Part shown: positions 3,256 through 23,895 of the stretch, one piece after another
Position numbering within the stretch: the first letter of the stretch is position 1
Layout of the letters: each line of letters opens with the position of its first letter
Assembly: GCA_049325335.1 (NCBI GenBank)
Contig: JBMOMC010000007.1
Coordinates: forward strand, 128,170-192,169
Length of the DNA: 64,000 nucleotides
Direction of reading: 5' to 3'
Source of the DNA: Nitrospirota bacterium
GTDB taxonomy: Bacteria; Nitrospirota; Nitrospiria; 2-01-FULL-66-17
The notes under the pieces: model-generated
What the model saw: the letters and a program-made list of their open reading frames with translations, nothing else
Told to the model about the DNA's origin: nothing
Databases searched by the model: none
Position numbers and translations under genes: made by a program

Positions 3256-3287
3256 GACACCCTTTCAACGAGCGTGTGACGTGCGCC

Positions 3288-3317
3288 ATCTTAATCAAGA
3301 GCGCTCACGGCTGTCAA
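3288..3317 (-). promoter_or_regulatory. candidate sigma70-type promoter for the MerR gene with a palindromic operator in the spacer
   Basis: Minus strand reads TTGACA (3317..3312), an 18-nt spacer containing the perfect palindrome GAGCGCTC (3299..3306), then TAAGAT (3293..3288), about 30 nt upstream of the ATG at 3255. MerR-type promoters typically carry the operator dyad inside a long spacer. Confidence 0.35.
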
Positions 3318-3365
3318 GGAGCGATACAACTTTTTCGGTTTTTGGATGGTTCCGTACGACGGAGA

Positions 3366-4784: not shown

Positions 4785-7027
4785 TCGGAACTCCTCAATT
4801 GCCGGGACAATCCGTCCGACCACGCGGCGCGAACGGCTGTCAACTCCACGTCGACCAAGATGTCGTCGGCCACCGCGATCACCAACCGATCGCCTCCCGT
4901 GTTCCCGACGTGCGCCGCCGGAACGCCCCACCGGGCCGCAACCGCCAGCACGCGTTCAACGGCGTGCGGCTCGGCCGAGAGCACCGCGCGCGACTGGCTC
5001 TCCCCGAACAACATCGCGTCGCGGCGAATCCCCTGGGGATTGGGCACGGTGATCACGGCGCCCACGGACGTGTCCGACGACATACAACACTCGGCCAACG
5101 CCACGGCCAATCCGCCGTCGGAGCAATCGTGCGCGGATTCCACCAGCCCGTCGCCCGTGAGCTCCAGCACACACCGGTACAATGCCGTTTCCGCGTCCAG
5201 AACCAATTCCGGCGGGAGCCCTTGTTCGCGGTGATGCACCACGGACAGGTACTGCGTGCCCCCCAACTCTTCCTTGGTCTCTCCCAGCACGATGACCACG
5301 CGACCGGACGATTTGAAGGCCTGCGTCATCACCTGCGCCGCCGGCGCCTTGCCCACCACGCCGATGATGGGCGTCGGATAGATGCCGATGCCACGCGTTT
5401 CATTATAAAAACTCACGTTGCCGCTGACCACCGGCACCCCGAACGCGCGGCACGCATCGGCCATCCCGTCCACGACCAGAGCGAATTGCCACATGACCTC
5501 AGGCCGTTCGGGATTGCCGAAATTGAGACAATCGCTGGCGCCCAACGGTCGCGCCCCGCTGCACACCACGTTCCGGCAGGCTTCCGCGATCGCGATCATG
5601 CCGCCGACATAGGGATTCAGCATGCAGTACCGGCTGTTGCCGTCCACGCTGATCGCCACCGCGGTGTCGGTTCCCTTGACGCGGAGCACCGCAGCGTCGG
5701 ACCCCGGCAGCACGATCGTGTTGGTCCCGACCATGTGATCATATTGCCGGTAGACCCAGGCCTTGCTCGCGACGGTGGGTGAGGCCAATACATCGAGCAA
5801 GGCATCGCGGTACGACTTGGGCTCCGGGAGTGATTCCAGGGACAACCCCTGAAGACTGTCCAAGTAGGGCGGCGGCGCGATCGGACGCTCGTACTTCGGC
5901 GCATCGTCGGTGACCAGGTCGATCGGCAACTCCGCCGCGACGACGTCCCCCCGGCGCACGACCAAGCGGCCCGTGTCCGTCACTCGCCCGATCACCGCGA
6001 CGTCAAGGCCCCACTTCTCGCAAATCACCCGCACCGCGGCCTCACACCCCGGCTTGGCGACCAGCAGCATCCGTTCTTGGGATTCCGAGAGCATGATCTC
6101 GTACGGCGTCATGCCGGTCTCGCGCGTGGGCACCAACGCCACATCGATGTCCACCCCGGTGCCGGCCCGCCCGGCCATTTCGCACGAGGAACTGGTCAGC
6201 CCCGCCGCGCCCATGTCTTGAATCCCGATGATCACATCGCCGGCCATGAGTTCCAGACAGGCCTCGATCAGCAGTTTCTCCATGAACGGATCGCCGACCT
6301 GGACCATCGGCCGTTTCTCGGACGCCCCGTCGCCGAAGGCTTCCGACGCCATGGTCGCGCCGTGGATCCCGTCGCGCCCAGTTTTGGCGCCGATGTACAT
6401 CACCGGATTGCCCACGCCGGCGGCCTGCCCTCGGAACAGCCGATCCTTGCGCGCCAGGCCCAAACAAAAAACGTTGACCAGCGGATTCGAGCGGTACAGG
6501 TCTTGGGTCGCCACCTCGCCGCCGACCGTGGGCACGCCCACGCAATTGCCGTAACCCGCGATGCCGGCCACCACGCGTTCGAACAGATACCGCGTGCGCG
6601 GCTCGTCGATCGGGCCGAATCGCAGCGAGTCCAAAAGCGCGACGGGCCGCGCGCCCATGGTGAACACGTCGCGGAGAATACCGCCCACCCCGGTGGCGGC
6701 GCCTTGGTACGGCTCGATAAACGACGGATGATTGTGGCTCTCGATCTTGAACACCGCGGCCAGACCGTCCCCGATGTCCACGGCGCCGGCGTTTTCGCCG
6801 GGCCCTTGCACGACTTCCTCGCCGGTCGTGGGCAAGCGTTTGAGATGCACGCGCGAGCTCTTGTAACTGCAGTGCTCGCTCCACATCACGGACACGATGC
6901 CCAGCTCCACCAGGGTGGGCGCGCGCCCCAACCGCTCGCGCAATCTGGCGTATTCCTCTGCAGTGAGGCCGTGCCTCGACAGGAGTGAGGGATCGAGCGG
7001 TTCGGTCAGGAGCGTGTCGCGTGGCAT
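4769..7027 (-). CDS. purL: phosphoribosylformylglycinamidine synthase subunit PurL
   Basis: [45 protein letters not shown], and duplicated AIR-synthase-related domains. Start taken at MPRDTLL (7027); the ORF is open to 7081. Confidence 0.9.
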
Positions 7028-7043
7028 CTGAGTTCCGGGGCCG

Positions 7044-7733
7044 CTAAACGGGTTGGCAGAGGGCGCCGAGCGCGGATTCAAACAATGCGCGCCCGTCGCC
7101 GCCCCCGAGCGCCGTTTCGGACGCGCGCTCCGGGTGGGGCATCATCCCCAGCACGTTCCGCGCGGGGTTGCACACGCCCGCGATCGCGTCGACCGACCCG
7201 TTGGGATTGGTCACCCCGTCCTCAAGCGGCGCGTACCGAAAGACGATCTGGCCTTGATCGCGCAGGCGCGACAACGTGTCGGGGTCCGCCCAATAGGACC
7301 CGTCCGCATGCGCGATCGGCAACCGCAAGACTTGGCCTGCGGCGTACCGCGCGGTAAACGGCGTGTCGGTCCGCTCCACGCGCACCCCCACGGTTCGACA
7401 GAGAAACTTGAGCGAGGCGTTCCGCAACAGGGCGCCGGGCAGCAACCCGGACTCGACCAAGATCTGGAAGCCGTTGCAGATGCCCACGGTCAACCCGCCG
7501 CGCGCCGCGTGCCGCCTGACCGCGTCCATGATCGGGGAACACGCCGCCAACGCGCCGGTGCGCAGATAGTCACCGTATGAGAACCCGCCGGGGAGCACCA
7601 CCAGGTCCGCGGTCGGCAGCTCCGCGTCGCGGTGCCACACCATCCGCACGGACGCCCCGAGCACGCGGCCCAACACGTGCTCGCAGTCTCGATCACAGTT
7701 CGATCCGGGGAATACCACGACGGCTGCGTTCAC
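7044..7733 (-). CDS. purQ: phosphoribosylformylglycinamidine synthase subunit PurQ (glutaminase)
   Basis: [19 protein letters not shown]...[18 protein letters not shown]...GICNGFQIL...MPHPER: class-I glutamine amidotransferase, PurQ type. Confidence 0.9.
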
Positions 7734-8175: not shown

Positions 8176-9027
8176 TCACGCCGCCTTGTTGGTCATCAAG
8201 CCCAAAAACCCTTTGATCGTCGACAGCGACCGCTGGGATCGCGAGTACAACATGGCGCTGAAAATCGCGGTGGCCGCGTGCCCGCCCAACATGGAAAACA
8301 ATTCGTGATCGACCCGGGTCAGCCGCTGTTTCTTTTGTTCAAACAGGTCGAAAATGGCGATCACGCCGATCACCCCGTCGTGAATCTTCAGCGGAATACA
8401 CGCGATCGGACGATCCGGCGACGACACGATCGGCTGATTGAGATCCTCGACGATAAACGGCTCGCCGGTTTGCGCTGTTTTCCCGATGATGCCTTCGCCC
8501 AACGGGATTTTTTTGATGCTCGGATCCATGGTTTCCGCGGCCGCCACGTTGAGCACGGGTTCTTCGTCGCTGCGCGTGAGAATCGCGAAGTGGTCCGACC
8601 CGATCAAATTGAGAATGATCTCGCTGATGATCCGCAACACTTCGTTGAGGTCCATCGTGGAATGGAGTTGGTAGCTCGCCACGTAGAGATTCGCCAAATT
8701 GTTGTTTTCTTCTTCCACCTCCACGTACCGGCTGGCAAAATCCTTGTTTTCTTCTTCGACCACCTTGTAGCGATTGAGCATCGCCTCTCGTTCGGCCTTC
8801 ATCTCGTCGAGTTGTTGACGAAGCTTCGAGAGCTCGGGCGAGGACGGGCCTTTGTGCCCGGCCCGGGCCTGTTCGATCGCTTGAGCGAGGGCAAACCGCA
8901 GCCGCTCATTCTCCTTGAGCAGATCGTTGGTAAACTCGATCCCCTTGTGAAACACCCCCAAAAACTCGTCCGCCCGGCGAAAGATTTCCGGCTCCTTGCC
9001 CTTTTCCTTGTCTTTATCCTTCTCCAT
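8176..9027 (-). CDS. coiled-coil + GAF-domain protein
   Basis: Lys/Glu-rich N-terminus (MEKDKDKEKGKE), heptad-like region (LSKLRQQLDEMKAEREAMLNRYKVVEEENKDF...), and a C-terminal GAF-like fold (...IPLGEGIIGKTAQTGEPFIVEDLNQ...ACIPLKIHDGVIGVIAIFD). Confidence 0.6.
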   Translation of the reverse strand: MEKDKDKEKGKEPEIFRRADEFLGVFHKGIEFTNDLLKENERLRFALAQAIEQARAGHKGPSSPELSKLRQQLDEMKAEREAMLNRYKVVEEENKDFASRYVEVEEENNNLANLYVASYQLHSTMDLNEVLRIISEIILNLIGSDHFAILTRSDEEPVLNVAAAETMDPSIKKIPLGEGIIGKTAQTGEPFIVEDLNQPIVSSPDRPIACIPLKIHDGVIGVIAIFDLFEQKKQRLTRVDHELFSMLGGHAATAIFSAMLYSRSQRSLSTIKGFLGLMTNKAA

Positions 9028-9098
9028 ACCGTCATCCTTTCACGGGCCCGGAGTATAGCACCGGGCTGTTCAGACCCGCAAGACTCCGACTTCCCCGT

Positions 9099-10184
9099 CT
9101 ATCGATGCGCCCCCGCCATGACCCGTTTGGCGATCTGCTCCGCGATCGCGTGCAGCGGCGCCACCACGTCGACCGCGCCTTCGAGGATCGCCTCCTGCGG
9201 CATGCCGAATACCACAGCGGTTTCTTCAGACTCCGCGATGGTGCCCCCTCCCCCTTGTTTAATTTTGGCCATGCCGCGCCGCCCGTCGTGGCCCATCCCC
9301 GTGAGGATGACGCCCACCAGGTCCGCGCCGAACACCTCGGCCGCCGAGGTCATTAGATCGTCGACGGAAGGCACGTACCGGTCGTCGAGACCCGCCGGGG
9401 TCAGGACCACCTTCACCCTGTCCCCGCACCGCACGAAGGAGAGGTGGTGTCCGCCCGGGCAGATCACGATCTGCCCGGGCCGACACCACTGGTCCGGGCT
9501 CGCCTCGGAAATATCCCACGCGGACAGACGATTGAGTCGCTCGGCGAACGACGCGGTAAAGCCGGCCGGCATGTGCTGCGCCACCGCCACCGCGCACGGC
9601 AGATCCCGCGGCAACGTGGACACGATGGTTTGCAGCGCGGCGGGACCGCCGGTGGATGAGCCGACCGCGACCAGTTTGAGTCGGTCGGGCGCGCCGACCG
9701 CGGGTTTGATGAGGATCGGGTCGGCGGGGCTCACCGCCGCGGCTTTGGCCGCGCGTTCGCATAATCGCACCGGCGAGGCGGCCGCGATCGCGCGCACCTT
9801 CGTCTCCAATTCGCCGCGCACCTTCAGCACTTCCCACGACGCCAGGTGGGTGGGTTTGGCGAGGAAATCCGCGGCGCCCAGTTCCAGGGCATGAAACACG
9901 TTGGAGGCCTCCGACGCCGCGCTGACCACCAAGACCGGCGTGGGCAACGTGTGCATCAACCACCGGAGAAACGCGAATCCGTCCATCCGAGGCATTTCCA
10001 GGTCCAACGTGATGACGCTCGGCCGATATTTATTGACCGCCTGAATCGCCTCCAATCCGTCCGAGGCGGTCCCCACGACCTCGACGCCGGGGACTTCCTT
10101 GAGCATCATGACTATCGCCTGCCGGTAGAACGCGGAATCATCCACCACCAGTACGCGCGTCGGCGTCGCGTCATGCCGCGGCAC
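9099..10184 (-). CDS. cheB: chemotaxis response regulator protein-glutamate methylesterase
   Basis: N-terminal REC (RVLVVDDSAFYRQ...ITLDLEMPRMDG) and C-terminal CheB methylesterase domain (VAVGSSTGGPAAL...VAQHMPAGFT...GMGHDGRRG). Confidence 0.9.
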   Translation of the reverse strand: MPRHDATPTRVLVVDDSAFYRQAIVMMLKEVPGVEVVGTASDGLEAIQAVNKYRPSVITLDLEMPRMDGFAFLRWLMHTLPTPVLVVSAASEASNVFHALELGAADFLAKPTHLASWEVLKVRGELETKVRAIAAASPVRLCERAAKAAAVSPADPILIKPAVGAPDRLKLVAVGSSTGGPAALQTIVSTLPRDLPCAVAVAQHMPAGFTASFAERLNRLSAWDISEASPDQWCRPGQIVICPGGHHLSFVRCGDRVKVVLTPAGLDDRYVPSVDDLMTSAAEVFGADLVGVILTGMGHDGRRGMAKIKQGGGGTIAESEETAVVFGMPQEAILEGAVDVVAPLHAIAEQIAKRVMAGAHR

Positions 10185-11010
10185 GGGACTGCTCCTCCTT
10201 CTGATACACGATATCTCGGTTGAGATGCCGCAGGTTGAACGCGGTGCTGACGTTGATCAATGACTCCGAATGGCCCAAGAGCAGGTACCCGCCCGGGCGC
10301 AATCGGTTCCAAAACATCTCGATCACCCGTTTCTTCACGGGCAGGTCGAAATAAATGATGACGTTGCGGCACAGGATCACGTCCACCCTGGGCACCAAGG
10401 TCGCCCGCTCCGCGTCCGCCAGGTTAAACGCGAAAAAACTGACCATACGTTTGACCGAATCGTTGATACGAAACCCGCTCCCCTCGGCGTGAAAAAACCG
10501 CTCGCGATACTCCGGAGGCGTTGACCGAAACGATGAGGGCGGATACACCCCGCGCCGAGCCGTCTCCAACACGCGCTGGCTGATGTCGCTGGCGACGATC
10601 TCGATGTGCCAGTCCGCGTACTCCGGGTGGTTCGCCAGCGTCATGGCGATGGAATACGGTTCTTCCCCGGTCGACGACCCGGCGCTCCAGATCCGCAGAG
10701 TGCGATCCGTGCGCCGTTTCATCAACCCCGGAAGAATTTCGTTCCGGAGCGCCTGCAGTTGATGGTCTTCCCGGAAGAAATACGTTTCGTGAATCGTCAG
10801 CAGGTCGACGATCACCGCGAATTCTTCGGTCCGCCGCGCGTCGTACTTGAGGAACAAATACAGGTCTCGGAACCCGGACAACCGGAGCCGACGGAGGGTC
10901 TCCTGGAGACGATTTTCCATGAAGAACTTCGATTGGTCGTCCAGCCACACGCCGCAATGGTCATACAACATGTCCCGGAGCAGCTTGAAGACGTCGGCGC
11001 TGAGCGGAAT
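10171..11010 (-). CDS. cheR: chemotaxis protein methyltransferase CheR (start codon uncertain)
   Basis: CheR N-domain (LSADVFKLLRDMLYDHCGVWLDDQSKFFMENRLQETLRRLRLSGF) plus SAM-MTase domain (LRIWSAGSSTGEEPYSIAM...LCRNVIIYFD). No ATG/GTG/TTG lies between the upstream gene stop (~11057) and the conserved N-domain; the nearest in-frame candidates are ATT/ATC, or a GTG about 155 nt inside the upstream gene. Confidence 0.8.
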   Translation of the reverse strand: MPLSADVFKLLRDMLYDHCGVWLDDQSKFFMENRLQETLRRLRLSGFRDLYLFLKYDARRTEEFAVIVDLLTIHETYFFREDHQLQALRNEILPGLMKRRTDRTLRIWSAGSSTGEEPYSIAMTLANHPEYADWHIEIVASDISQRVLETARRGVYPPSSFRSTPPEYRERFFHAEGSGFRINDSVKRMVSFFAFNLADAERATLVPRVDVILCRNVIIYFDLPVKKRVIEMFWNRLRPGGYLLLGHSESLINVSTAFNLRHLNRDIVYQKEEQSRAAA

Positions 11011-11056
11011 TGAGACTTGTTCGATGGCGATCCCCCGTGGTGTGGTGTGTGCCGGG

Positions 11057-13084
11057 CTACGACGCCTCGTCCAACGCCATCGTGAGTTGCTCCACCGCGA
11101 AATGCGCGGACTCTCGAACCACGTGATCCGGATCTTGCGCCGCCAGCTCGCGCAGCCGCGGCAACGCGCGGGTGACCCGCGCGCGACCGAGCGCCACGGC
11201 CGACGCCGCACGAACCCCCCAATGCGCGTGGTCCAACATCGGGATGACCGGTTCCGCGATCTGCTCGCCGCCGATTTCACCCGCGGCCGCGATCGCGGCC
11301 TGTTTGACGTCCGGGTCGTTCGAGGAGAACAGCCGAATCATGGCCGGCAACGCCCCGCGAACCTTGCGCGTTCCCAGCGCGACGCAGACCGCGATTTGAA
11401 TCAATCCGACCGGATCATTCACCAGCAGCAGCAGCGTCTCTTCGATGCCCTCGGCGCCCCGCTCGCCCAACAACCGAATCACCTCGGCGCGGATCCAGAT
11501 ATCGGGATCATGCAACAGCGGCCGAATCAGGTCGTCGATCACGGCATCCCGTCGTCGGGCCAGAATCCGGATCATTTCGAGCCGCACGGTCGGGTCTTCG
11601 TCGTTTAAGGCCACGTGCGCCACGGTTCTCACGTCGCCGCCCAACGACTCCAACGCCGCCAGCCCGGTACGCCGGATCATGGGGTCCGGATCCTTCAGGT
11701 CCAACATCAGGCGGCCGTGCGCCTCGGGCGCTTGAAAGGCGCCGAGTAATCTCGCGGCGTAACAGTGGATCTCCACCGTGGAGCCGTCGAGCAGACCCAG
11801 CAGCCGAGACACCAGGCCGGGGCTCTTGAGCCGCGTTAAGGCGCGGTACGCGGCCTCTTGAACATTCGGGTACGGATCCGCCAACAACTGGAGTAAGGGA
11901 CGGACCCCCAGCGGGTCCGCCAGTTGCCCCAAGGCCGCGGCCGCGGCTTGGCGAACGTGGCCCTCGGGATCTCCCGTGAGTTCGACGAGTCCGTGAACGG
12001 CTTTCCGGTCGCCGATCTCCCCAAGCGCCCGCGCCACGTCTTCGCGCAGTCCGGCCGGGGCTCGCGGGATCACGGCCAATAATTTGGGCACGCCCTCGCG
12101 CTGCATGCGGACACACGCCGCCACCAGTTCCTCCCGACACGATTCGTCGTAGACCGCGGCGAGCGCGGCGATGGCTTGCACGTCGCCCATCCACCCCAAC
12201 ACCGTGATCGCGTTGCGTTTGACCGCCGCGTCGCCGCCAGCGAGGCTGTCCCGAAGGTATCGGCTCACCGGCTCGTCGTAGATTTCGCGCATACGACAGA
12301 TAATCTTGGTTTTCACGTCGGGCGGCATCCGACCGTACAACTCGATCACCGCACGCACGGCCACGTGGCGGACCTTCGACGACCCGAGTCGGATCGCCTG
12401 TGCCAAGGGATTCACCACCCGCCCATCGCCGATCCGTCCGAGCGCCTCCAATGCCGCGCGTTCCAACGTCGGTTTGCCGAGGCACCCGACCAGCGGTTCG
12501 ACCGCCCGCCCATCGCCGATTTCCTGTAAAGCTTTGACCGCGGAAAACTGCAGCAGGGGACGGCCCTGTCGCAACAGATCGGCCAACGGCTCCACCGCCC
12601 TGGGATCCCGCAGTTTCCCCAACGCCTCCACCGCCGCCATCGCCACATTCTCGTCGGTCTGGCCCACCAACCGCACCAGGACCGTGGTCGCGCGCCGATC
12701 ACCGATATCTCCCAGGATATCGACTACGAACTTCTGCACATCGGGTTCAGCGGAGGGCACCGCGGCCAAGAGCGCCGGAACCGCGGCGAGGCCGAAGCGC
12801 ACCAGCACTTCGGCGGCAGCGTTTCGCAACGACGCGTTGTCCGGATCGGCCACCCCCGCGATCAGATGCGGGGCCATGTCCGCACGCCATCCCAACCCGA
12901 CCAAGGCCTCGACCGCGGATTTCCGAACGCGCCACTCCGAGTCCCTGAGCGCGGTCAGCAGATCCGCCACGGCCTCGTACCCGCATCGGGCGAGGTCCGC
13001 GACCGCGGCCACCCGCTCTTCCATCTCGCCGCTCGCCAATCGCGCGCGGCAGGTCGTGACGTCTGACTGATGCGGCTCGGCCAT
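11057..13084 (-). CDS. HEAT-repeat (PBS-lyase-like) protein
   Basis: More than 15 tandem ~30-aa repeats of the form D.xVRxxAxxALGxIGDxRAVxPL. Start taken at MAEPHQ (13084); the ORF is open to 13222 but would then overlap the upstream gene by 119 nt. Confidence 0.7.
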   Translation of the reverse strand: MAEPHQSDVTTCRARLASGEMEERVAAVADLARCGYEAVADLLTALRDSEWRVRKSAVEALVGLGWRADMAPHLIAGVADPDNASLRNAAAEVLVRFGLAAVPALLAAVPSAEPDVQKFVVDILGDIGDRRATTVLVRLVGQTDENVAMAAVEALGKLRDPRAVEPLADLLRQGRPLLQFSAVKALQEIGDGRAVEPLVGCLGKPTLERAALEALGRIGDGRVVNPLAQAIRLGSSKVRHVAVRAVIELYGRMPPDVKTKIICRMREIYDEPVSRYLRDSLAGGDAAVKRNAITVLGWMGDVQAIAALAAVYDESCREELVAACVRMQREGVPKLLAVIPRAPAGLREDVARALGEIGDRKAVHGLVELTGDPEGHVRQAAAAALGQLADPLGVRPLLQLLADPYPNVQEAAYRALTRLKSPGLVSRLLGLLDGSTVEIHCYAARLLGAFQAPEAHGRLMLDLKDPDPMIRRTGLAALESLGGDVRTVAHVALNDEDPTVRLEMIRILARRRDAVIDDLIRPLLHDPDIWIRAEVIRLLGERGAEGIEETLLLLVNDPVGLIQIAVCVALGTRKVRGALPAMIRLFSSNDPDVKQAAIAAAGEIGGEQIAEPVIPMLDHAHWGVRAASAVALGRARVTRALPRLRELAAQDPDHVVRESAHFAVEQLTMALDEAS

Positions 13085-13103
13085 CGCGTCCCTCCCCCCG
13101 CGC

Positions 13104-14174
13104 CTACGCGGCCGCCTGACGATTGCGATTGAGCAATTCGCGCCGAGTCGCCACGAATTGTTCGAGCGTTTGCTGGAACAAATCCGCCGTCGCGGGAAAT
13201 GACGGGTCCCGCCGTTCTTCATAGAGACGCCGCCCTTCGTCGATCTCCGCGCGCAACAACTCGAAAAACGTCCCCTTCACCACTCCCTCGTCCACCTTCT
13301 TCGCGTTATACAGCGCAATGTCGGAAACGATGATGCGGGCCAGGCGCCGCGCGGCCTCCACCACCGGATCGTCGGTCTTGGACGCTGAGGGCGCCGGGGG
13401 TTGGACCGGCGGCATCGACGGTTCCTTGGCGACTGCGGGCGCCGGAGGAACCGTCGGCGCGCTCGGCGGCGCCACGCGCGACGCGGCGGGAGCCGACGGC
13501 TGGGGCCGCGCGCTGGGCGGCGGTACCGGCGCGGGCGCAACCGCTTTTGCGGCAACGGCCTGGGCCTCCGCGACTCGCTCCGGTTGATGGGGTTCGGGCG
13601 ACGGCTCCGAGGCCGAGGCCTCGCGTTCACACAAGGCTTTGACCTTGGTCACCAAATCCGTTTCGATCTGGTGTCGCTCGATGTAGTCGTCCGCGCCAAA
13701 GAGCTGACCCGGTTGGCGCCGGTACCGGTCCTTATTGTGAATCGCCGCGACCAGGATGATTTTCACCCCCGCAGTCGCGGCATTGTTCCGGATGCGCTCG
13801 CACACTTGGAACCCCATAATGTCCGACAGCCCCACGTCCACCAGGACCAACGCGGGCCGCGCGTCACTCACGCGAACCAAGGCGTCCGCGCCGGTGGCCG
13901 CTTCGATGACTTCGAACCCCGCTCCCGAGAGCAACTCGCCGATCAGTTCGCGCGTCGCCTCGCCCTGCAGCGCGACCACCACGCGTTGGCGCTGGTCGTT
14001 GGTCGGCGGCGACGGGGACGTCTCCGGGGCGGCCGCGGCGGCGGGGATCGCAAACGCCTCGATCCTGACCCGCAGCCCGCTCCGACATCCGGGACACGCC
14101 ACCACCGTGTGATCGGCCAGGGACGGGAGCGCGTAGCCGACTCCCGCGCCGCATTGTGCGCAGACGATGTTCAT
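13104..14174 (-). CDS. MJ0042-type zinc-ribbon + degenerate receiver-like domain + Pro/Ala-rich linker + C-terminal domain protein
   Basis: N-terminus [14 protein letters not shown]...[15 protein letters not shown] (CxxC...CxxC). Receiver-like fold ([18 protein letters not shown]...[16 protein letters not shown]...[10 protein letters not shown]) retains the phospho-Asp position but lacks the DD pair, Thr and Lys. Long [19 protein letters not shown]... linker follows. Confidence 0.6.
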
Positions 14175-16402
14175 GGGTTCTCCTTCGTGAGTTTAAAGCG
14201 GGAGACTTGTGCCTCCAGTTCCCTGGCCGCGGACAGCAGGCTGTCGACCGCCGCGGTCGTCCGATTCATCGCGTCCCGATTTTGATGACCGACGCGCCCG
14301 ATCGATGACACGGCGCCGACGATGGCTTCGCTTTCGGTTCGCCGTTGCCGAACGAACTCTTGGACCGTCTTGACCCGTTGGTTCGCGGATTCAATGACCT
14401 GGCTGACTTGTCGGTTCCCCTTGGCGTGTTCGGTCGCCGCGCGGGTCACGCGTTGCGACATCGCACGCGCCTCCTCGCTGACCCGCTCCACGTCCTCGAG
14501 CATGCGCGCCTGCGTGCGCGCCACCTCGATGAGGTGCGCCACCTGCGCGGTGACGGTCTGCATCTCCGCGTTGACCCGTTGCACGCCGCTCATTTGCTGA
14601 TCCGTTTCCCGCGCGATGTCCAAAATTCTCGTCGTGGAACTCTTCGCGCCCTCCAAAATCTTGTCCAACGCCGCCCGCGCGGCGCCCGACACCCGCACGC
14701 CTTCTTCCACACGGCTCGCGCTGTCCGCGATCGCCCGCACCGCGCCCGCGCCCTCGACCTGCAGCGCCGCAATAATGTCGTGGATCTCCTTGGTCGACGT
14801 CGCGGTCCGCTCCGCCAACTCCTTGATCTCGCCCGCGACCACCGCAAAGCCTTTGCCGTGTTCGCCCGCCTGCGCGGCGATGATCGCGGCGTTGAGGGCC
14901 AAGAGATTGGTCTGCTCGGCCACTTCGTCGATCACGCTCAGAATGCTCCCGATCGACTCGGTCCGCTGTTGGAGCCGTTGGATCACGGCCGACGCGTCGT
15001 CGGAAAACGCCTTGATGCGATGGATGCCGTCGATCGTTTGCGCCACGCATTCCTGCCCGTGTCGCGCGTCATCCCCTACGCGGTGTGACAGCTCCACCGT
15101 CGTGTGGATCTCGGCCCGGATCTGGGTCGTGGACTGCTCGATCGAATCCGCCGACGAGGCGGTGTCCGCCGCGGCTTTTGAGAGCACGCCCAACGCCGCC
15201 TCCGCCTGTCGGATCGATTCGGCCAGGATTTTCACCGAGTGTTGGGTGCCGGATGCCGCCCGCGCGTAACCGTCGGCGTCCCGGGCGATTTCCTCGGTCG
15301 ACGCCGTCATCTGCGCCGTCGCCGCGGTGCTCTCCTCGATCATGGTCGAGAGTCCGTCCATCCCGGAGCCGAGTTCCGTAATCGCTTCGTGCAGCTCGGT
15401 CGTGGATTGCAGGGTCGCCTCCACGTGGATCGCCTGCGATTCGATCCCGCTGTGCACCACGGCGGCGTCCCGCGCCAAATCGCGGCCCGAGGCGCCTACC
15501 GTGCGACTGACGTCGGACACCTTCCGGATAATGACCTCCAGCTTGTCCACGAACCGATTGAACCCTCCCGCCAAGTCGCCGATTTCATCGCGCGAGGATA
15601 ACTCCAACCGTCTGGTCAGATCCCCTTCCCCGTCGCTCACGTCGTTGATGCGCTCCACCACCCGATGGAGCGGACCGAACACGCCGCGCCGGAGCGAGAC
15701 CCGCAGCAGCAGCCCCACGATCGTGATGGTGCCGAACGCGCCCCACGCCATGTCGCGTCGATTCGCGCCGACCTCGTTCCACAACTGATCGGTCGCGGTG
15801 GAGATCATGAGGACTCCCCGCAACTTGTGGTCCGAACCGTGACACAGGTAACACCGTTGAAAATTCGGCAACGGCCGCAGGTAGGTCATCACCTCCCGGT
15901 CGTTGATCCGCTCAAAGTAATATTCGTCCTTCGCGTTGAGCGGGTCCGCCAGAATGCGGGTAAAGGCTTCGCGAAACGCCGGCGCCTCGACCCCGGTCGC
16001 GCGATTGGGCGAGACGTTGGGATGATCCGCCACCCACTCGGGGCGAATCGGCACGCGCGTTTTCACCTCTTCAATGGTCTTGAGGTCCATGAACCCCTGC
16101 TCGACGCCCAACCCGTCTTTTCCGCGCACGACCTGGATCCGGACGATTTCCGGCAATTCCTTGAGGTCGTCGAGCAAATGCCGCGCCATATCGGCGCGGA
16201 ACGCCACCATGTCTTTGTCGAACGCCAGGTGCACCGAAGCGGCCAGCAACCCCGCTTTCTCCCGCTCGTGGTTGATCAAATCGTGCCGCATCTTGGTCTG
16301 CAGGATCACGAAAATCGCGACAAACCCGACCACCAAGGTCGCCAACACCAGGGTGATGACCTTCGACGAAAGTTTCCGACCGGACTGGTTCGGCGCGCCC
16401 AT
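14171..16402 (-). CDS. methyl-accepting chemotaxis protein with periplasmic CXXCH (haem-c) sensor domain and HAMP
   Basis: TM1 ([20 protein letters not shown]), a ~190-aa periplasmic domain containing [13 protein letters not shown]2, HAMP, then the MCP signalling domain ([29 protein letters not shown]). Start at MGAPNQ (16402) gives a 1-nt overlap with the cheW stop. Confidence 0.85.
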
Positions 16403-16872
16403 CACGCCACCTCGGACAACACGGCGAATTCCGCGGGTCCCAACACCGCGTCCAAATCCACGACCAGCAACAAGGCGTCCTTGACGCGACAGACGCCTCG
16501 ACACATCGTCCCGCCGTCGGCGTCCGACTTGCGCGCCTCAAAGTCGTCGGCATCCACGTCCAACACATCCGACACGCGATCCACGACCAACCCCAGCAGC
16601 CGCTCACCCAATCGCACGATCAAGATGTGCGCGGGACGCGTGCGCGCGCTCGCGGGGACGCCGAAACGTTCCCGCAGTTCGATCAACGGCAGCGTGGTGC
16701 CCCGAAGGTCCATCAACCCGTCGAGAAACGCCGGAGCGTGCGGCACCGGAACCGGCTCGCGGTAAAACACGATTTCGCGGATCCGTTCGATTTCGGTCAC
16801 GTACGGACGTTCGCCGATCTCCAAACACAGCAGTTTGCGGCGAACGTGCAGCGTTGCCAGCCGTCCCGCCAT
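16402..16872 (-). CDS. cheW: chemotaxis coupling protein CheW
   Basis: Single CheW domain ([23 protein letters not shown]...[21 protein letters not shown]). Stop/start overlaps with both flanking MCP genes. Confidence 0.9.
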
Positions 16873-18986
16873 CAGGCCACCTTGAACCGATTGACCTCGG
16901 AGCGCAGCGTCTCGGCCTGCCGCACCAGTCCGTTCACGACCCCGCTCATTTGTTCCGCGACGGCCGCGCTGTCCTTCGAGACCATTTGAATTTCTTCGGC
17001 CGACTTCATGATGATTTCGCTGCCGCGCCGCTGTTCGCGGACGGCCGCGGCGATGTGTTGCACCCGATCGGTGACGTGTTCCACCGCCTGGGTAATCTGC
17101 TTGCTGCCCTTGGCCTGCTCTTCGGTGGACAACCGCACCTGCCTGGTGATATCCCGCATCCGCTCCGCGGCCTCGCGAATTTGTTCCGATCCCTTGCTTT
17201 GCTCCTGGGTGGCGCGCGAAATCTGATCGACCATCTGGGTGATCTGTCGCATGGACTCGGTCACTTGCCGGATTCCCTTGACCTGTTCGATCGTGGCCAG
17301 CTCGATGCCGCGGGCCATATTGGTGGACTGCGTGGAGCTCTCCAAAATCTTCTTGAGCGCCTCGCCGGCCTCCAGCGCCATCTTCATGCCCTCTTCCACC
17401 CGCACGTACCCGTCTTGAATCGCGGTGACCGCGTCGCGCGACTCCCCCTGCACCGCGCCGATGAGCTGCGCGATCTCCTTGGTGGACACCGAGGTCCGGT
17501 CCGCGAGATTTTTGATCTCATCCGCCACGACCGCGAACCCCTTGCCCTGTTCACCCGCCTGCGCCGCCAAGATGGCCGCATTGAGCGCCAGCAAGTTGGT
17601 CTGTTTGGTGACTTCGTCGATCACGGTCAGGATTTTGCCGATCTGGTCGGACCGTTGACCCAGTTGGTGGATGACGTCGGTGGTCTTTTTGACGGTTTCG
17701 CTGATTTTCTCCATGCTCGCGATGGTCTTGGTCACCGACAACATCCCGATTTCCGACGCCTCGCGCGTCACCCGTTCGGCCAACGAGGCCGACTGCTTCG
17801 CGTTTTGCTCGACTTCCTTCACCGACGCGTTGATCTCGGTCACCGCCGAGGCGGTTTCACCCGAGGCCGTGGACAACAACACCACGTTGCCGGCCACCTG
17901 TTTGATCGAAGCCGACATTTCAATAATGGCCGATGACGTCTCCTCCACCGACTTGGTCAGATCCACAGTGTTGGCCGCCACTTCGCTGATCGCCGCGCTC
18001 ATCTGTAAAATCGAGGACGAGGTGGCTTCCGACGCCGACGAGAGCACCTCGATCCCATCGCCGACCTCCCGCAGCGACGCGTTCATTTCCACCAACGAGG
18101 AGGAGGTCTTCTCCGTGGAAATCGATTGGATGTTGGCGCCCTCCGTGACTTTCCGGCTGTTGCCCGCGATGTGCTCCGACGCGGACGTCACCGCGTTCGC
18201 CGCGTCCTGCACTTTGCGAATCATGGCTTTCAGGCTCGACGCCATTTGATTGAACCCGCTCGCCAACACGCCGATTTCGTCGCGCGACGCGACCTCGATC
18301 GTCTGCGTAAAATCGCCGTCCGCCACGCGCGTGACCACCAACGCCATCCGCTCGATCGGCGCCATGTTCTTGCGCACGAAATACCACATCACCCCCATGC
18401 CGGCGCCGACCGTAAGCACGGTGATCAACACGCTCCACCACATAATGCTCGAGAGCTTCTTTTCCAATTCCCGAGGCGACAACGCCATCACCACGGTACC
18501 GATGCGGGCCTTCCCGCCCGAGCCGCCGGCCATGGCTTCTCCGGTGCTGAACAACACCGGCTCCACCACCATCAACAGCGTCTTGCCGTCCTTCTCCACC
18601 TGTTCGACGAATCCTTCGCTCGCCTGAACCGCCTTCACCGCGAGGGGATCGCTGTCGACTTCCTTACTGAAGTTGGCATCGCTGTGGACCCAGACAATCC
18701 CGCGCCCGTCGAGGATCTTGACGTACGCCACGTCGGTCTCGGTCATGATGCCCTTGATGTAACTGACCAGGCTCGACGAGTCGCCGATCGAAATGCCGTA
18801 CGTGCTGTTGTGGGCCAAGTTACTGGCCAGCGACACGCCGCGTTTGATCAGCGCCTCTTGCAGGAACTGCCCGGTCCTCGCCATCGACACCACGGTCAGC
18901 ACCACGGAGACGCTCAGCAAGAGGAGACTGGTAATGATGACGAACTTAAACCGCAGTCCGAACCGGATATTTCGTCGCTCCAACAT
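16872..18986 (-). CDS. methyl-accepting chemotaxis protein (2 TM, periplasmic sensor, HAMP)
   Basis: TM1 [21 protein letters not shown], a ~150-aa periplasmic domain without Cys, TM2 [25 protein letters not shown], and the MCP signalling domain ([25 protein letters not shown]). Confidence 0.85.
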
Positions 18987-19015
18987 ACGCTCCTCCCCCC
19001 ATACCGTTCATCCCG

Positions 19016-19768
19016 TTAGGCCGCGGCTCGCGCCGACGACGCGTCAACGGCCACGAGCCGCTCCAAATGCAAGACGCCGATCAATCGCTCGCGGTGCCGC
19101 AAGGTCGCGGTGACAAATCCCGCTTCGCGCTCCCCCATGGTCGTGGGCGGCGGACCCAGCGCATCGGCCTCGGCGTTGATGACCTCCGTCACGTGATCCA
19201 CCACCATGCCCACCGGCGCCCCGTCGATCACGACCACCACGATCCGGGACTTGGAGTCGTGGTCCCGCGCCGGCATGGATAATCGGCGACGCACGTCAAA
19301 AATCGGCACGATCGATCCCCGCAGCGAAATGATGCCCATTATGTTCGCCGGCCCTCGCGGGATCGGCGTGATGTCGGTCGGACGAATAATCTCCCGAACC
19401 GAACGAATCCACAGACAGTATTCTTCCGCGTCCAACGTGAACCCTAAAAATTCTTCGACGCGCGCCTCCGGCGCTTCGGAAACCGCCGCGCCGGACGACG
19501 GCTCCGCCGAACCACCGTACGGCGCTTCCACACGCTCCGGGGCCCCGTCCTGGCCATTCATCGGGCCGGCCGGCGGTGGCGCCTCGATCGCGATCGCGAC
19601 CGGCTCCGCAAGCACGGGCGGGTCCGGCTGGGCCGGCGCGGGGACTGACGCTGGTTCGGCCGCTGGCACCGGTTCGGCCACCGTCGTGCGCTCCCGGTTG
19701 ACCGGGCTCGTTGTCGCGCGCGTTCTCCGCCGTGACCGCGATTGGTGTGACGTGCGGGATCGCCTCAC
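19016..19768 (-). CDS. CheW-domain protein with Arg-rich / Pro-Ala-rich N-terminal extension
   Basis: C-terminal CheW fold (EEFLGFTLDAEEYCLWIRSVREIIRPTDITPIPRGPANIMGIISLRGSIVPIFDVRRRL...). The N-terminal ~100 aa are low-complexity. ATGA overlap with the upstream small MerR gene. Confidence 0.75.
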   Translation of the reverse strand: MRRSRTSHQSRSRRRTRATTSPVNRERTTVAEPVPAAEPASVPAPAQPDPPVLAEPVAIAIEAPPPAGPMNGQDGAPERVEAPYGGSAEPSSGAAVSEAPEARVEEFLGFTLDAEEYCLWIRSVREIIRPTDITPIPRGPANIMGIISLRGSIVPIFDVRRRLSMPARDHDSKSRIVVVVIDGAPVGMVVDHVTEVINAEADALGPPPTTMGEREAGFVTATLRHRERLIGVLHLERLVAVDASSARAAA

Positions 19769-20004
19769 GCCGCCTCCTGTCGCACCTTCTCGGCCGCGCG
19801 GCTGACCAGGAATCCTTCATCCGTCAACGCCTTGACCCGCTTGAGGATCCGAACGTCGTGGTCCGTGAATCGGCGGAACAATTTCACCCCGTGGCGTTCG
19901 CTGACCGGCGTCACCACCCCGATCAAGACCCAGTACTCGAGTTGCCGAGGGGACAGCCCGACCTGCCGACACACCTCATTGGGACCGCATAACCCCGTGC
20001 GCAT
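19765..20004 (-). CDS. DNA-binding-domain-only MerR-family protein (79 aa, BldC-like architecture)
   Basis: VCRQVGLSPRQLEYWVLIGVVTPVSERHGVKLFRRFTDHDVRILKRVKALTDEGFLVS is a MerR winged-HTH, about 45% identical over ~60 aa to the 2773..3255 MerR N-domain. No effector or dimerisation domain. Confidence 0.7.
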   Translation of the reverse strand: MRTGLCGPNEVCRQVGLSPRQLEYWVLIGVVTPVSERHGVKLFRRFTDHDVRILKRVKALTDEGFLVSRAAEKVRQEAA

Positions 20005-20017
20005 CTACCGCTCCATC

Positions 20018-20037
20018 ACATCCCACAGGCTTGTGGG
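20018..20037. promoter_or_regulatory. perfect inverted repeat ATCCCACA-N4-TGTGGGAT immediately upstream of the small MerR-like gene
   Basis: Sequence atcccacaggcttgtgggat lies 14-33 nt upstream of the ATG at 20004, inside a 280-bp non-coding gap within the otherwise tightly packed che cluster. Confidence 0.35.
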
Positions 20038-20283
20038 ATCGCACCGCGACTAGCAGCAAGGACCGTGCCGAGGTGCGATCTCCCTAGAGCCCATGGAACC
20101 GCGGAGGGGCGTGACCAGAGGTCGTTACGCGTCGTCGGTTGGGTAACGCGTCACCCGGTGCGTGCCAAAAATTGACGCAATGACCCAAAGACGTGACGGA
20201 GCGGACAGGACGCGGGGTGCGAAGAAACCTTCCTCGGGTCCCCGATCGTCGGGTCCTCGAGGGCAGCACGGAATCAGGCGGGC

Positions 20284-22290
20284 TTAGGCGGCCAGGGGAA
20301 GGGCGGTTGAACGACGGCACACGGCTTCATCGATCAACGCCCCGACGTCGAGCACCAGAATGGTCTTTCGATTCCCCAGTTCAGTGGCGCCGGCAACGCC
20401 GGGGATACCTTGGAGCAGTGAGCCAATGGATTTGATGACGATTTCCTGCTGCCCATAAATCGTATCCACGACCAACCCCAACCGCTTTTCCGCCAACCCG
20501 ACGACGATGATGTACAGGCGGCTGTCCCCGTTCCGGGCCGGCTCGACGCCGAACAGATCGCTAAGCCGCAGGAGCGATAAGGTGTGGTCGCGTAGGTGTA
20601 TGACGGGCCGGCCCCCGATCGTGACCACTTGGCTGGATTCGATCATGACGCTTTCGGACACCGCGCTGATGGGGATCGCGTAGGTCTGCGTCCCCACGCC
20701 CACGATCAACGCCTTGATGATCACCAATGTGATCGGCAGCGTCAACACGAAGCTCGTCCCCTGGCCGAGCTCCGTATCGACCTCAACGATCCCGTTGAGC
20801 TTGGCGATATGCCGGGCCACCACGTCGAGGCCGACCCCCCGCCCGGAGAGTTCGGTCACGGCCTCGGCGGTGGAGAACCCGGGTTGGAAGAGAAAGTCGA
20901 TGATCTCTTTGTTGGTATAGTCCCGGTCCGGCTCCGCGATGTGATTGGCAAGCGCCTTCTCGCGCACTTTCGCCAGGTTCACGCCCGCACCGTCGTCCGA
21001 GACCGTGATGGTCACGGTATGGCCCTTGTGGGCCGCGCTCAGATGGATCGTCCCCACCTCCGGCTTGCCGCGGCGACGGCGTTCCTCGCACGGCTCGATC
21101 CCGTGATCGAGGGCATTGCGGATCAAGTGCAACAACGGATCCGCGATCGCCTCGACCATGGATTTGTCGAGTTTGGTTTCCTCGCCGGACGTCGTGACCT
21201 GAATCTCCTTGCCCAAGTCCCGGGAGATTTTTTTGATCGCGCGCACGGAGCGATCGAACAACTGCGCCACCGGGATCATGCGGATTTCAATCAACCCTTC
21301 CTGCAGCCCGGACACGCGGTGTTCCAAGGCTTGGGCGGCCTTATGTAATTCCATCGCGGGGCCCACCAACCCCCCATTTTGGAGCAGGTCTCGCGCGATC
21401 TGGACGATCACCGACTTGGAGAGCACCAGCTCCCCCAGCATATTCAACAAAGCGTCGAGTTTGACGATGTCCACCCGGATCGTTTGGCTGAGGCTGCGGG
21501 TCGACGGCGAGTCCGATTCACCGGCGGGTGCGGCCTTTGTCGGCGTCGGCTCCGCGCCGCCCAGTTGCACGATGTCGGCGCGATCCTCGGCCAGCAACCG
21601 CGTCAACGCGTCCCGGTCCTGCGCGGTGCCGACCAAAAGCGTAAACGCGATCCCGGCCTCCGGCGACACTCCGGAGCTGGGCAACGTGGAAATCACTTCC
21701 CCCACGCCCTGGAGTTTCGCGGTCAGACTCGACAGGGACTTGTCGAAATCTTCGAACCGGAAACGGACGCGGATCTCGAACAACCGATGGTTGGCCTTGA
21801 TGTTTTCCTGAAGGCGATGTTGTTCGTACTCGGTGAGGACTTGGAGAATTTCGGGATCAACCCCGGACTTCTCGGTGGACGGCGCCGCGGCGGGCGCCCC
21901 GTTCACGGCCTCGCGGAGGCGCGCCGCCAGCCCCGACGTATCCGGCGGCACCTGGTCCGATGACGCGGCGGCGATCAACTGGGCCAACGCCTCGACGCCG
22001 TCGCCCAAGAGATCCGCGAGATTTCGACTCATCCCGAGTTTGCCCATGCGCAGCCGGTCCATCAGGTCTTCCAGCGAATGGGCTAGGTCCGACACCGCGG
22101 TCAACCCCATCACCCCGGACATCCCCTTGAGGGTGTGGGCCGCGCGAAACAACGCGTTGAGCGATTCCGGACTGATCGAGTCGGGCGATTGCTCGATCCG
22201 ATCCAGATGGCGGCGGAGGGTATCGAGGAGTTCGTCGGACTCGGCGAGGAACTCTCGAAGCGTGTCGTCCTTGTTCCGGCGATCCATCAC
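20284..22290 (-). CDS. cheA: chemotaxis histidine kinase CheA
   Basis: P1/Hpt (AAHTLKGMSGVMGL), dimerisation region, HATPase (DHGIEPCEERRRRGKPEVGTIHLSA...DDGAGVNL...GRGVGLDVV) and C-terminal CheW-like P5. No fused receiver domain. Confidence 0.9.
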   Translation of the reverse strand: MMDRRNKDDTLREFLAESDELLDTLRRHLDRIEQSPDSISPESLNALFRAAHTLKGMSGVMGLTAVSDLAHSLEDLMDRLRMGKLGMSRNLADLLGDGVEALAQLIAAASSDQVPPDTSGLAARLREAVNGAPAAAPSTEKSGVDPEILQVLTEYEQHRLQENIKANHRLFEIRVRFRFEDFDKSLSSLTAKLQGVGEVISTLPSSGVSPEAGIAFTLLVGTAQDRDALTRLLAEDRADIVQLGGAEPTPTKAAPAGESDSPSTRSLSQTIRVDIVKLDALLNMLGELVLSKSVIVQIARDLLQNGGLVGPAMELHKAAQALEHRVSGLQEGLIEIRMIPVAQLFDRSVRAIKKISRDLGKEIQVTTSGEETKLDKSMVEAIADPLLHLIRNALDHGIEPCEERRRRGKPEVGTIHLSAAHKGHTVTITVSDDGAGVNLAKVREKALANHIAEPDRDYTNKEIIDFLFQPGFSTAEAVTELSGRGVGLDVVARHIAKLNGIVEVDTELGQGTSFVLTLPITLVIIKALIVGVGTQTYAIPISAVSESVMIESSQVVTIGGRPVIHLRDHTLSLLRLSDLFGVEPARNGDSRLYIIVVGLAEKRLGLVVDTIYGQQEIVIKSIGSLLQGIPGVAGATELGNRKTILVLDVGALIDEAVCRRSTALPLAA

Positions 22291-22658
22291 CCGGACCCGA
22301 TCAACCGTTGGATCGTGGACTGCAGATGTTGGGGCTCGAACGGCTTCTTCACGTATGCGGACGCTCCCAAGTTGAGCCCCCGCCGCACGTCTTCGTCGCT
22401 GCCCTCCGTGGACACGATGACCATCGGGATCGATTTATACTCCGGGTGGTGTTTCACGAAATGCACGATCTCCAGACCGTTGATGTCCGGCATATTGATG
22501 TCGGTGACGATCAGGTCGAGCGCCTGCTGCGGGATGCGTTTGAGGGCTTCGAACCCGTTGGGGGCTTCGATGGTTTCGAACCCCTCCATCTCCTCGATAG
22601 CGGAGACGATCAGCGCGCGCGTGGTGGGCGAATCATCCACCACCAACACGCGTTTCAT
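22287..22658 (-). CDS. cheY: CheY-like single-domain response regulator
   Basis: MKRVLVVDDSPTTR...LIVTDINMPDINGLEI...PMVIVSTEG...AYVKKPF: complete receiver signature. Overlaps the cheA start by 4 nt. The ORF is open to 22676. Confidence 0.85.
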   Translation of the reverse strand: MKRVLVVDDSPTTRALIVSAIEEMEGFETIEAPNGFEALKRIPQQALDLIVTDINMPDINGLEIVHFVKHHPEYKSIPMVIVSTEGSDEDVRRGLNLGASAYVKKPFEPQHLQSTIQRLIGSG

Positions 22659-22698
22659 GTCGGTCCGTTTTTGCACGCGGCTGAGTATAGCATAGGGT

Positions 22699-23895
22699 TT
22701 AAGAATCGCCCGTTCTGGTCCGCTGAATTTGTTGTTGCAACAACGTCTTGCCGAGGGAAACGGCCGCGACGCGAAGAAACGCCTCCAGCCCCCCGGTCTC
22801 GCCGATCGGCGTCTGGTGCGGGAGATTGTCCCCGTACAAGAAGGCGACCACCCGCTCCGCGCTCACGATGGGCGCGAGATAACTTTCCTGCGGCCAGTGT
22901 CCGCCCAGGCGCTCCATGACCATCCGATTGCCGGAGAGATCGGGCCAAGCGCCCTTGAGCGCGGAGCGGCTGTCCGCGACCGCTCTGAACGACGACGCGT
23001 CGGTCAGCGGCACGACGATGGACCGGACCACCTCGTCGGGCGAGCCCTCCGTCACCTCCACGCCGAACTGTCCCCACCCGCCGACCGCGTCGCCTCGCAC
23101 CAAAAAAATGACCGATCGATTCATCAACTCGCCGGCAAACCGCAGCATCATCAGGAAGACGTCGTGGCCGGACACCGCCCCGCCGAGCTCTTCGATCATG
23201 GCCGGCAACAACGATAAATCCTTTCTCGGAATTTCTGCGCGATCCCCCAATACCGCGGCCCCCAACGCGTCGTCCGACACCAGGCCCGCCAGGCTTTCCG
23301 GGTCCGGTGTTTCGATCGCCGGGTGCGACATCGGGGTGGACTCGTCCAGGCCCGCGAACGAGTCCTCGGCGCCGGAGGATTCGTCGAGGACCAGGTCATC
23401 CCCGACTCCGCCCCCGGATTCGTCCTCGAGCCGGGCGCCTTCCAACAGCAGAAACTCGGCGCTGATGCCTGCGTTCATCAACACGCCGTCCTCGGAAAAT
23501 TTCCCCAACGTGAACTGAAAGGTCCCGGTTCGCCAGCCCAGCAGATCACGCACCACGTCGATGATGTGCAGGCGTAATTCGCTCTCCACTTGCTCCGGGC
23601 TCATCGAGCCCATTTCCACCAAGATCGTGCCGATGGGCTTCTTGACGGTGCGGACCTTTTGGATGCCGAGCGCTCGTTCGAGGTCCGCGCGCGTGATCAG
23701 GTTCTTCTGGACCAGCACGTAGCCGAACCGGCTCTTATTGTCGGAACTGGCGTAAGTCACGTTGCCTTGGTTGAAGACCACGCGCCCCATGCCGTCCTTT
23801 TTAATGAGCGTCAACACGCCCGAGCGTTTGCTCAGGTTGATGATTTGAAAAATATCCGGTAAGCCGAGGTCTTCGAGACGACCCTCAAGGCTCAT
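22699..23895 (-). CDS. DUF4388 (PATAN-like) N-terminal domain protein with C-terminal GAF-like region
   Basis: N-terminus LEGRLEDLGLPDIFQIINLSKRSGVLTLIKKDGMGRVVFNQGNV matches the DUF4388/PATAN pattern. The C-terminal ~150 aa look like an alpha/beta sensory fold. Overlaps the purS stop by 4 nt. Confidence 0.55.
   Translation of the reverse strand: MSLEGRLEDLGLPDIFQIINLSKRSGVLTLIKKDGMGRVVFNQGNVTYASSDNKSRFGYVLVQKNLITRADLERALGIQKVRTVKKPIGTILVEMGSMSPEQVESELRLHIIDVVRDLLGWRTGTFQFTLGKFSEDGVLMNAGISAEFLLLEGARLEDESGGGVGDDLVLDESSGAEDSFAGLDESTPMSHPAIETPDPESLAGLVSDDALGAAVLGDRAEIPRKDLSLLPAMIEELGGAVSGHDVFLMMLRFAGELMNRSVIFLVRGDAVGGWGQFGVEVTEGSPDEVVRSIVVPLTDASSFRAVADSRSALKGAWPDLSGNRMVMERLGGHWPQESYLAPIVSAERVVAFLYGDNLPHQTPIGETGGLEAFLRVAAVSLGKTLLQQQIQRTRTGDS

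Follow-up and report, generated by a model that had tools for sequence, protein, structure and literature searches.

A chemoreceptor with a predicted periplasmic haem c sensor in a conserved che cluster of Nitrospirota

Two proteins of Geobacter sulfurreducens, GSU0582 and GSU0935, are the closest described relatives of the gene product that we analyze here, a methyl-accepting chemotaxis protein (MCP) encoded at 14171..16402 on the minus strand of a 64,000-nucleotide stretch from a Nitrospirota bacterium (GenBank assembly GCA_049325335.1, contig JBMOMC010000007.1, positions 128,170 to 192,169 of the forward strand). We refer to the whole stretch as the window, and to this protein, after the haem predicted for it, as the haem MCP; positions are those of the window, and features lie on its minus strand unless marked otherwise. 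In GSU0935, Cys140 and Cys143 are the thioether cysteines, His144 is the proximal ligand of the haem and Met60 its distal axial ligand. Reduction switches both Geobacter proteins from high to low spin, and both bind nitric oxide (NO) and carbon monoxide (CO) by displacing Met60 (PMC8396549). These sensors have been united with the DUF3365/Tll0287 proteins in the sCache_heme family, whose defining feature is a short CXXCH-bearing helix placed ahead of the final strand of the Cache fold (PMC12889525, a 2026 bioRxiv preprint). According to the same work, more than half of the Nitrospirota genomes encode an sCache_heme protein, and a signalling-linked sCache_heme protein binds NO tightly.

We estimate at roughly 85% the probability that the haem MCP is a chemoreceptor with two transmembrane (TM) segments and one c-type haem on a periplasmic single-Cache domain, of the sCache_heme, GSU0935/GSU0582 type. 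By analogy with its relatives, its signal is probably the redox state or a gas, for instance nitric oxide. The domain adds a slightly divergent member to a known family that is common in Nitrospirota, and it reveals no new kind of system. What it does provide is a concrete candidate for how a Nitrospirota lineage close to the manganese-oxidising Manganitrophaceae feeds periplasmic redox or NO information into a conserved chemosensory pathway.

The receptor and its predicted haem site

The assignment draws on the motif, the topology, the homology to solved haem sensors, four conserved ligand and attachment residues, the fold and the surrounding operon. The haem MCP has 743 amino acids, and its gene overlaps both neighbors. 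Its start codon, the ATG at 16402, shares TGATG with the stop of the upstream cheW, and its stop at 14171 shares ATGA with the start of the response regulator gene that follows. A first transmembrane segment (TM1, residues ~14-36, 16295..16363) has a Kyte-Doolittle hydropathy of up to 3.0 over 19 residues, and is followed by a loop of 182 residues (37-218, 15749..16294), a second segment (TM2, residues ~219-237, 15692..15748), a HAMP domain (residues 238-289, 15536..15691; PF00672, E 3.7e-12) and the core of the MCP signalling domain (residues 445-618, 14549..15070; PF00015, MCPsignal E 8e-38). The signalling hairpin has its tip, GEHGKGF, at residue 513, between arms of 226 and 228 residues, which places it at about 64 heptads, a class inferred from arm length and not from a class-specific model. 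A HAMP domain and an MCP signalling domain with a conserved tip, encoded beside cheA, cheW, cheR and cheB, are what we expect of a chemoreceptor. Since HAMP and MCPsignal come after TM2, the loop of residues 37-218 must be periplasmic. This topology is based on hydropathy, on the order of the Pfam domains, and on two helices of the structural model described below (6-66 and 205-240) that extend into both TM segments.

Inside this loop, the minus-strand codons TGT TAC CTG TGT CAC (15853..15839) encode C184-Y-L-C187-H188, the predicted haem c attachment motif together with its proximal histidine. From the composition of the protein, the number of CXXCH motifs expected by chance in the 182 residues is 8e-5, and the motif is not a chance occurrence. 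There are only three cysteines in the whole protein (184, 187 and 452). Across six frames the window has four CXXCH motifs, and that of the haem MCP is the only one inside a believable gene. An earlier note on this DNA had reported a CYLCH motif at 15839..15853, between TM1 and TM2 of this MCP and in a periplasmic segment that it placed at 15724..16300; the sequence confirms every detail of the motif, and hydropathy, domain order and model helices agree with the periplasmic placing.

To which family does the sensor belong? A single-sequence search of the PDB returns 3b47 (GSU0582) and 3b42 (GSU0935) as the best two matches, aligned across the CXXCH. A word-index search for homologs found two relatives only, and an exhaustive HMMER search was needed. 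Run against 1.84 billion cluster representatives (clusters defined at 50% identity), it finds 505 clusters with E <= 0.001 and 138 with E <= 1e-10. A profile of 32 family sequences then matches 3b42 with E 1.3e-13 and 3b47 with E 3.6e-10, while Tll0287 itself (5b82) is matched with E 0.17. Taken individually, 27 of the 32 match PF21563 (Mcp40H-20_sensor), the Pfam family of the Geobacter sensors, at E <= 0.01 (the best at 5.6e-14), 14 of the 32 match PF11845 (Tll0287-like), and several full-length relatives exceed the PF21563 cut-off, at 30-123 bits. The profile also has weak matches to p85 SH2 domains (E 0.01-0.6), which we dismiss as a chance likeness to the AFxDxxTxxxV stretch.

The family alignment brings all four key residues into register. 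C184, C187 and H188 fall on Cys140, Cys143 and His144 of GSU0935, and an invariant methionine of the family, Met65 in the haem MCP (codon at 16208..16210), falls on the first methionine of YMMKG in 3b42. His144 stands at chain position 110 in that structure, which gives an offset of 34, and the aligned methionine is therefore Met60. An independent MAFFT alignment, made of long-type and short-type relatives with GSU0935, reproduces the correspondence. Among 100 full-length single-domain sensors, each from a different 50%-identity cluster, C184, C187 and H188 are kept in all 100, and Met65, the predicted switchable distal axial ligand, in 99. Other well-conserved columns are F104 (99%), G99 and T109 (97%), V113 (95%), A103 and D106 (93%) and R195 (92%). 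We also considered His192, in the sequence CHGSDH, as a universal second ligand and rejected it: it is kept in 42% of the relatives, and even close ones have Tyr or Arg in its place.

As expected of a signal-input domain, the sensor module is fused to varied outputs, which in the relatives include MCPs, histidine kinases, GGDEF-EAL proteins, a hybrid kinase with GGDEF and, in triplicate, adenylate cyclases. Nine relatives outside the window (P0048, P0051, P0055, P0080, P0086, P0094, P0123, P0134 and P0137), of ~700-760 residues, have three tandem CXXCH modules ~130 residues apart. In the two of them scanned with Pfam, P0048 and P0055, the modules are PF21563 domains, and HAMP and an adenylate/guanylate cyclase domain come after the third. 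The nine have the look of arrays of three haem-Cache domains with a cyclase as output.

AlphaFold2 run on a 3-sequence alignment gave a poor model (predicted local distance difference test, pLDDT, 57), which we replaced with one built on the 32-sequence alignment (monomer, pLDDT 93.4, predicted template modelling score 0.85). In this confident model, TM1 and a long N-terminal helix form one continuous helix (6-66) that ends at Met65, followed by a helix (70-81) and a strand (86-93); the middle has two short helices (108-114 and 121-125), a helix (141-152) and the strands 160-166 and 169-179; the C-terminal part has the short CXXCH helix (182-188), a strand (194-203) and a helix (205-240) that runs into TM2. 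The model thus depicts a single-Cache fold in which the short helix that bears the CXXCH stands between two strands (169-179 and 194-203). A Foldseek search of the PDB returns three matches at E <= 0.001, namely an integrative model of WalK (E 5e-7), whose extracytoplasmic sensor is an sCache domain, and two chains of GSU0935 (E 1.8e-6); weaker matches include the extracellular domain erWalK (2.3e-3), GSU0582 (3.0e-3) and further Cache ligand-binding domains. The likeness to GSU0582 and GSU0935 that the earlier note had pointed out is upheld by the alignment proposed there as a check, with ligands in register and profile E-values of 3.6e-10 and 1.3e-13. Its term "PAS-like" has to be given up: the current class of such domains is Cache (sCache_heme; PMC12889525), and both the model and Foldseek agree with that class.

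A number of observations weigh against the assignment. The single-sequence match of the domain to the PDB has an E-value of only ~0.02, and the protein is below threshold on both haem-Cache models of Pfam, with 22.2-23.3 bits for a cut-off of 27 on PF21563, and 16.4 bits (E 0.012) for a cut-off of 24.1 on PF11845. The Foldseek match to 3b42 has a large root-mean-square deviation of 13 Å, so that the structural match rests on the 3Di and sequence scores; domain swapping in the crystal and the presence of the TM helices in the query are a plausible cause. The hydropathy of TM2 is moderate (1.59). A search of the open reading frames (ORFs) of the window for other c-type cytochromes found no believable one, and no cytochrome c maturation genes were found in the 64 kb; that the organism can attach haem c is thus an assumption, based on what is known about its phylum. 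As for the cytochrome search, the only other long ORF with a CXXCH (62825..63337, CVPCH at residue 12) was rejected as a cytochrome, being Arg/Gly/Ala-rich, without a Pfam match, and looking like a GC-rich artefact.

The che cluster and its surroundings

The haem MCP is encoded in the middle of a che cluster that runs, in the direction of transcription, from a DUF4388 protein (22699..23895) to a GAF protein (8176..9027). The first genes after that for DUF4388 are cheA (20284..22290, with Hpt, dimerisation, HATPase_c and CheW domains by Pfam), a second cheW (19016..19768, Pfam CheW 4.8e-33), the gene of a second MCP with a plain sCache_3_2 sensor (16872..18986), and the cheW that is translationally coupled to the haem MCP through the TGATG overlap (16402..16872, Pfam CheW 6.6e-31). 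The periplasmic domain of the second MCP had been described as free of cysteine, which holds for the entire protein. After the haem MCP come a response regulator (13104..14174, Response_reg 7.8e-12), a HEAT-repeat protein (11057..13222, HEAT_2 1e-81), cheR (10171..11280, CheR 4e-58) and a cheB with a receiver domain (9099..10184, CheB_methylest 8.5e-60). At its N-terminus the response regulator carries a zinc-ribbon-like CxxC...CxxC segment; its tail is long and rich in Pro and Ala, and in it a linker of ~100 residues is followed by a conserved C-terminal helical region. The true start of the HEAT-repeat protein is probably ~45 codons downstream of the ORF start, given that orthologue alignments begin at residues 47-61 in five of the six loci described next (at residue 2 in L002).

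A scan of species-representative genomes finds six loci with this arrangement, all in Nitrospirota, and the whole cluster (DUF4388 to GAF, 8176..23895 in the window) is syntenic in all six. The sensor identity is 87% in the metagenome-assembled genome Betzabe_MAG041 (L001, where the identity of the whole MCP is 91%), 76% and 49% in two loci of uncultured Nitrospirota (L002 and L003), and 45-46% in three loci of Candidatus Manganitrophaceae / Manganitrophus (L004-L006). Candidatus Manganitrophaceae are Mn(II)-oxidising. M65, C184, C187, H188 and H192 are kept in all six orthologues. A literature search for Manganitrophus in connection with chemotaxis and haem found nothing relevant.

What does the cluster control? 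By Pfam, the cluster encodes no single-domain CheY, CheZ, CheC or CheD and no flagellar proteins, and both of its MCPs are unusually long, at ~64 heptads. The conserved cluster suggests a specialised, possibly non-flagellar, chemosensory pathway. It is a serious possibility, although we lean slightly the other way, that the output is not flagella but another function, such as surface motility, biofilm or exopolysaccharide, with the haem MCP as a redox input; this question is independent of what the sensor binds. The absences just given and the length of both MCPs speak for such an output, as do the company of a 700-residue HEAT-repeat protein, a CxxC...CxxC response regulator, a GAF protein and a DUF4388 protein, and the conservation of the arrangement in six Nitrospirota genomes. 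On the other side, CheA of the window has no receiver domain at its C-terminus, such as is typical of many alternative-function systems.

Downstream of the cluster are a purQ-like glutamine amidotransferase (7044..7733) and a purL-like gene (4769..7081). Elsewhere in the window, a 444-residue protein (58347..59681) matches dCache_1 weakly and contains a HAMP domain, with no recognised output domain and no CXXCH, and lies directly downstream of a GAF-GGDEF diguanylate cyclase (59706..61163); it is reminiscent of Cache-HAMP receptors without an output domain (bioRxiv 10.64898/2026.05.25.727664). At 48288..50669, a Ser/Thr protein kinase of 793 residues that is rich in TPR overlaps the end of the gene for a 495-residue protein with two FHA domains (50666..52153), and the two are probably a kinase/phospho-reader pair. 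There is also an unusual fusion of a TusA sulfurtransferase domain (residues 109-177) with an ABC-transporter ATPase domain (residues 206-346) at 43666..44997. Long ORFs without a Pfam match are found at 61166..62809 (547 residues), 36646..37893 (415 residues) and, on the plus strand, 3276..4676 (466 residues).

How the receptor may signal

Haem attachment to the window domain is predicted by homology, and for haem occupancy, a Met-on/Met-off switch, the signal and the output we follow the Geobacter proteins (PMC8396549) and the sCache_heme work (PMC12889525). In the proposed mechanism, the loop would be exported and the cytochrome c maturation system would then join haem to Cys184 and Cys187, with His188 as the fixed proximal ligand. 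The labile distal ligand would be Met65, where the N-terminal helix continuing TM1 ends, bound to a low-spin haem in the reduced state and displaced by oxidation or by the binding of NO or CO. The N-terminal helices may then shift against the beta-sheet, a movement that could be transmitted through TM1 and TM2 to HAMP and on to the signalling hairpin of ~64 heptads, which would set the activity of CheA via the co-translated CheW, while CheR and CheB would supply adaptation. By these means the cell would steer, or tune another output of the che cluster, by periplasmic redox potential, NO, or both.

A tenable variant of this scheme, which we nevertheless hold as somewhat doubtful, is that the domain is mainly a gas sensor for NO and not a sensor of redox potential, such that NO displaces Met65 and a five- or six-coordinate nitrosyl haem is the signalling state. 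NO is a nitrogen-cycling intermediate of relevance to Nitrospirota, but by Pfam no protein of the window points to NO metabolism. The variant has in its favor that the authors of the sCache_heme work put forward NO as the signal for every member joined to a signalling module (PMC12889525), and that GSU0582 and GSU0935 bind NO whether oxidised or reduced (PMC8396549). However, the P. azotoformans protein belongs to the Tll0287 branch and lacks an aligned axial residue, whereas the window family has the invariant methionine of the Geobacter proteins, which also showed a redox-linked spin switch (PMC8396549).

Another elaboration concerns an insertion that distinguishes the long form of the domain (residues ~95-140, 15983..16120). 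This region carries the columns G99, A103, F104, D106, T109 and V113, conserved at 93-99%, and in the alignment it is absent from GSU0935. It might rebuild the classical Cache ligand pocket beside the haem, in which case the receptor would integrate the redox or NO state of the haem with a ligand, either a small molecule or a metal. We regard this as improbable; if true, a receptor with both pocket and haem could guide these relatives of Manganitrophaceae to the oxidant/reductant interface on which they live.

Returning to the c-type haem itself, might the CXXCH of an ordinary Cache domain instead be a metal site (Zn, Cu or Fe) or a thiol-disulfide redox motif? CXXC motifs can serve in either way, and the sub-threshold scores on both haem-Cache Pfam models fit such a reading. 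It is very hard to reconcile with a histidine that follows the second cysteine in 100 of 100 relatives, with a conserved methionine aligned to a known distal ligand, and with homology at E 1e-13 to two crystal structures that have haem at the aligned motif; nor is any further cysteine or histidine conserved enough for a metal site (H192, 42%). Finally, a haem domain of the Tll0287 type, stably ligated by Cys/His and serving electron transfer instead of sensing, is barely credible here: the weak PF11845 match (E 0.012) and the 14 of 32 relatives that match that family speak for it, but the match to Tll0287 itself is not significant, the only cysteines of the periplasmic domain are the two thioether ones, which makes Cys ligation impossible, and the domain is joined via TM2 and HAMP to an MCP signalling domain in a che operon.

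Comparison with known systems

With GSU0935 and GSU0582 (3B42 and 3B47; PF21563), the haem MCP shares the plan of a two-TM MCP with a periplasmic single-Cache domain, formerly called PAS-like, and a single CXXCH on a short helix ahead of the last strand. The strand-CXXCH-strand region follows a common pattern, T-x-L-x-P-[LI]-x-N-x-x-x-C-x-x-C-H, and with GSU0935 the proximal histidine and the distal methionine are aligned as well (H188 with His144, M65 with Met60). The differences are in size, in one residue, in the output domain and in genomic setting. The window domain is ~40 residues longer, with the insertion, ~35-40 residues relative to GSU0935, coming after strand β2. It has the extra His192 in CHGSDH, kept in the Nitrospirota orthologues and in 42% of the family. 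Its signalling domain has ~64 heptads, as against the class 40H that is given to the Geobacter receptor in the Pfam name of PF21563. And unlike the Geobacter prototypes, it is encoded inside a che operon.

The likeness extends to the sCache_heme family at large (DUF3365/Tll0287-like, PF11845/IPR021796; PMC12889525), with which the haem MCP has in common the extracytoplasmic Cache fold, the inserted CXXCH helix and a strict CXXCH. The fusion to MCP, histidine kinase, GGDEF/EAL and cyclase outputs and the enrichment in Nitrospirota are also shared. To the Tll0287 branch the protein is weakly similar (E 0.012 on PF11845, 0.17 for 5b82), and residues 37-218 contain no third cysteine beyond C184 and C187, which excludes a Tll0287-like Cys/His ligation for this domain. 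The cofactor-free sCache sensors WalK, KinD, CitA and DcuS have the same long N-terminal helix continuous with TM1, the central sheet and the return to TM2. Sensors of this kind rank among the top Foldseek matches. They lack the CXXCH helix and the conserved methionine, and bind small ligands in place of haem.

Among the HMMER matches there are also relatives of a short type, whose CXXCH stands near residue 140. Of the relatives of the Geobacter haem sensors, most turn out to have the longer form, with an extra conserved motif and no solved structure. The Geobacter model would reach a much larger group, the 505 clusters with E <= 0.001, through spectra of an M65 variant or a long-form structure.

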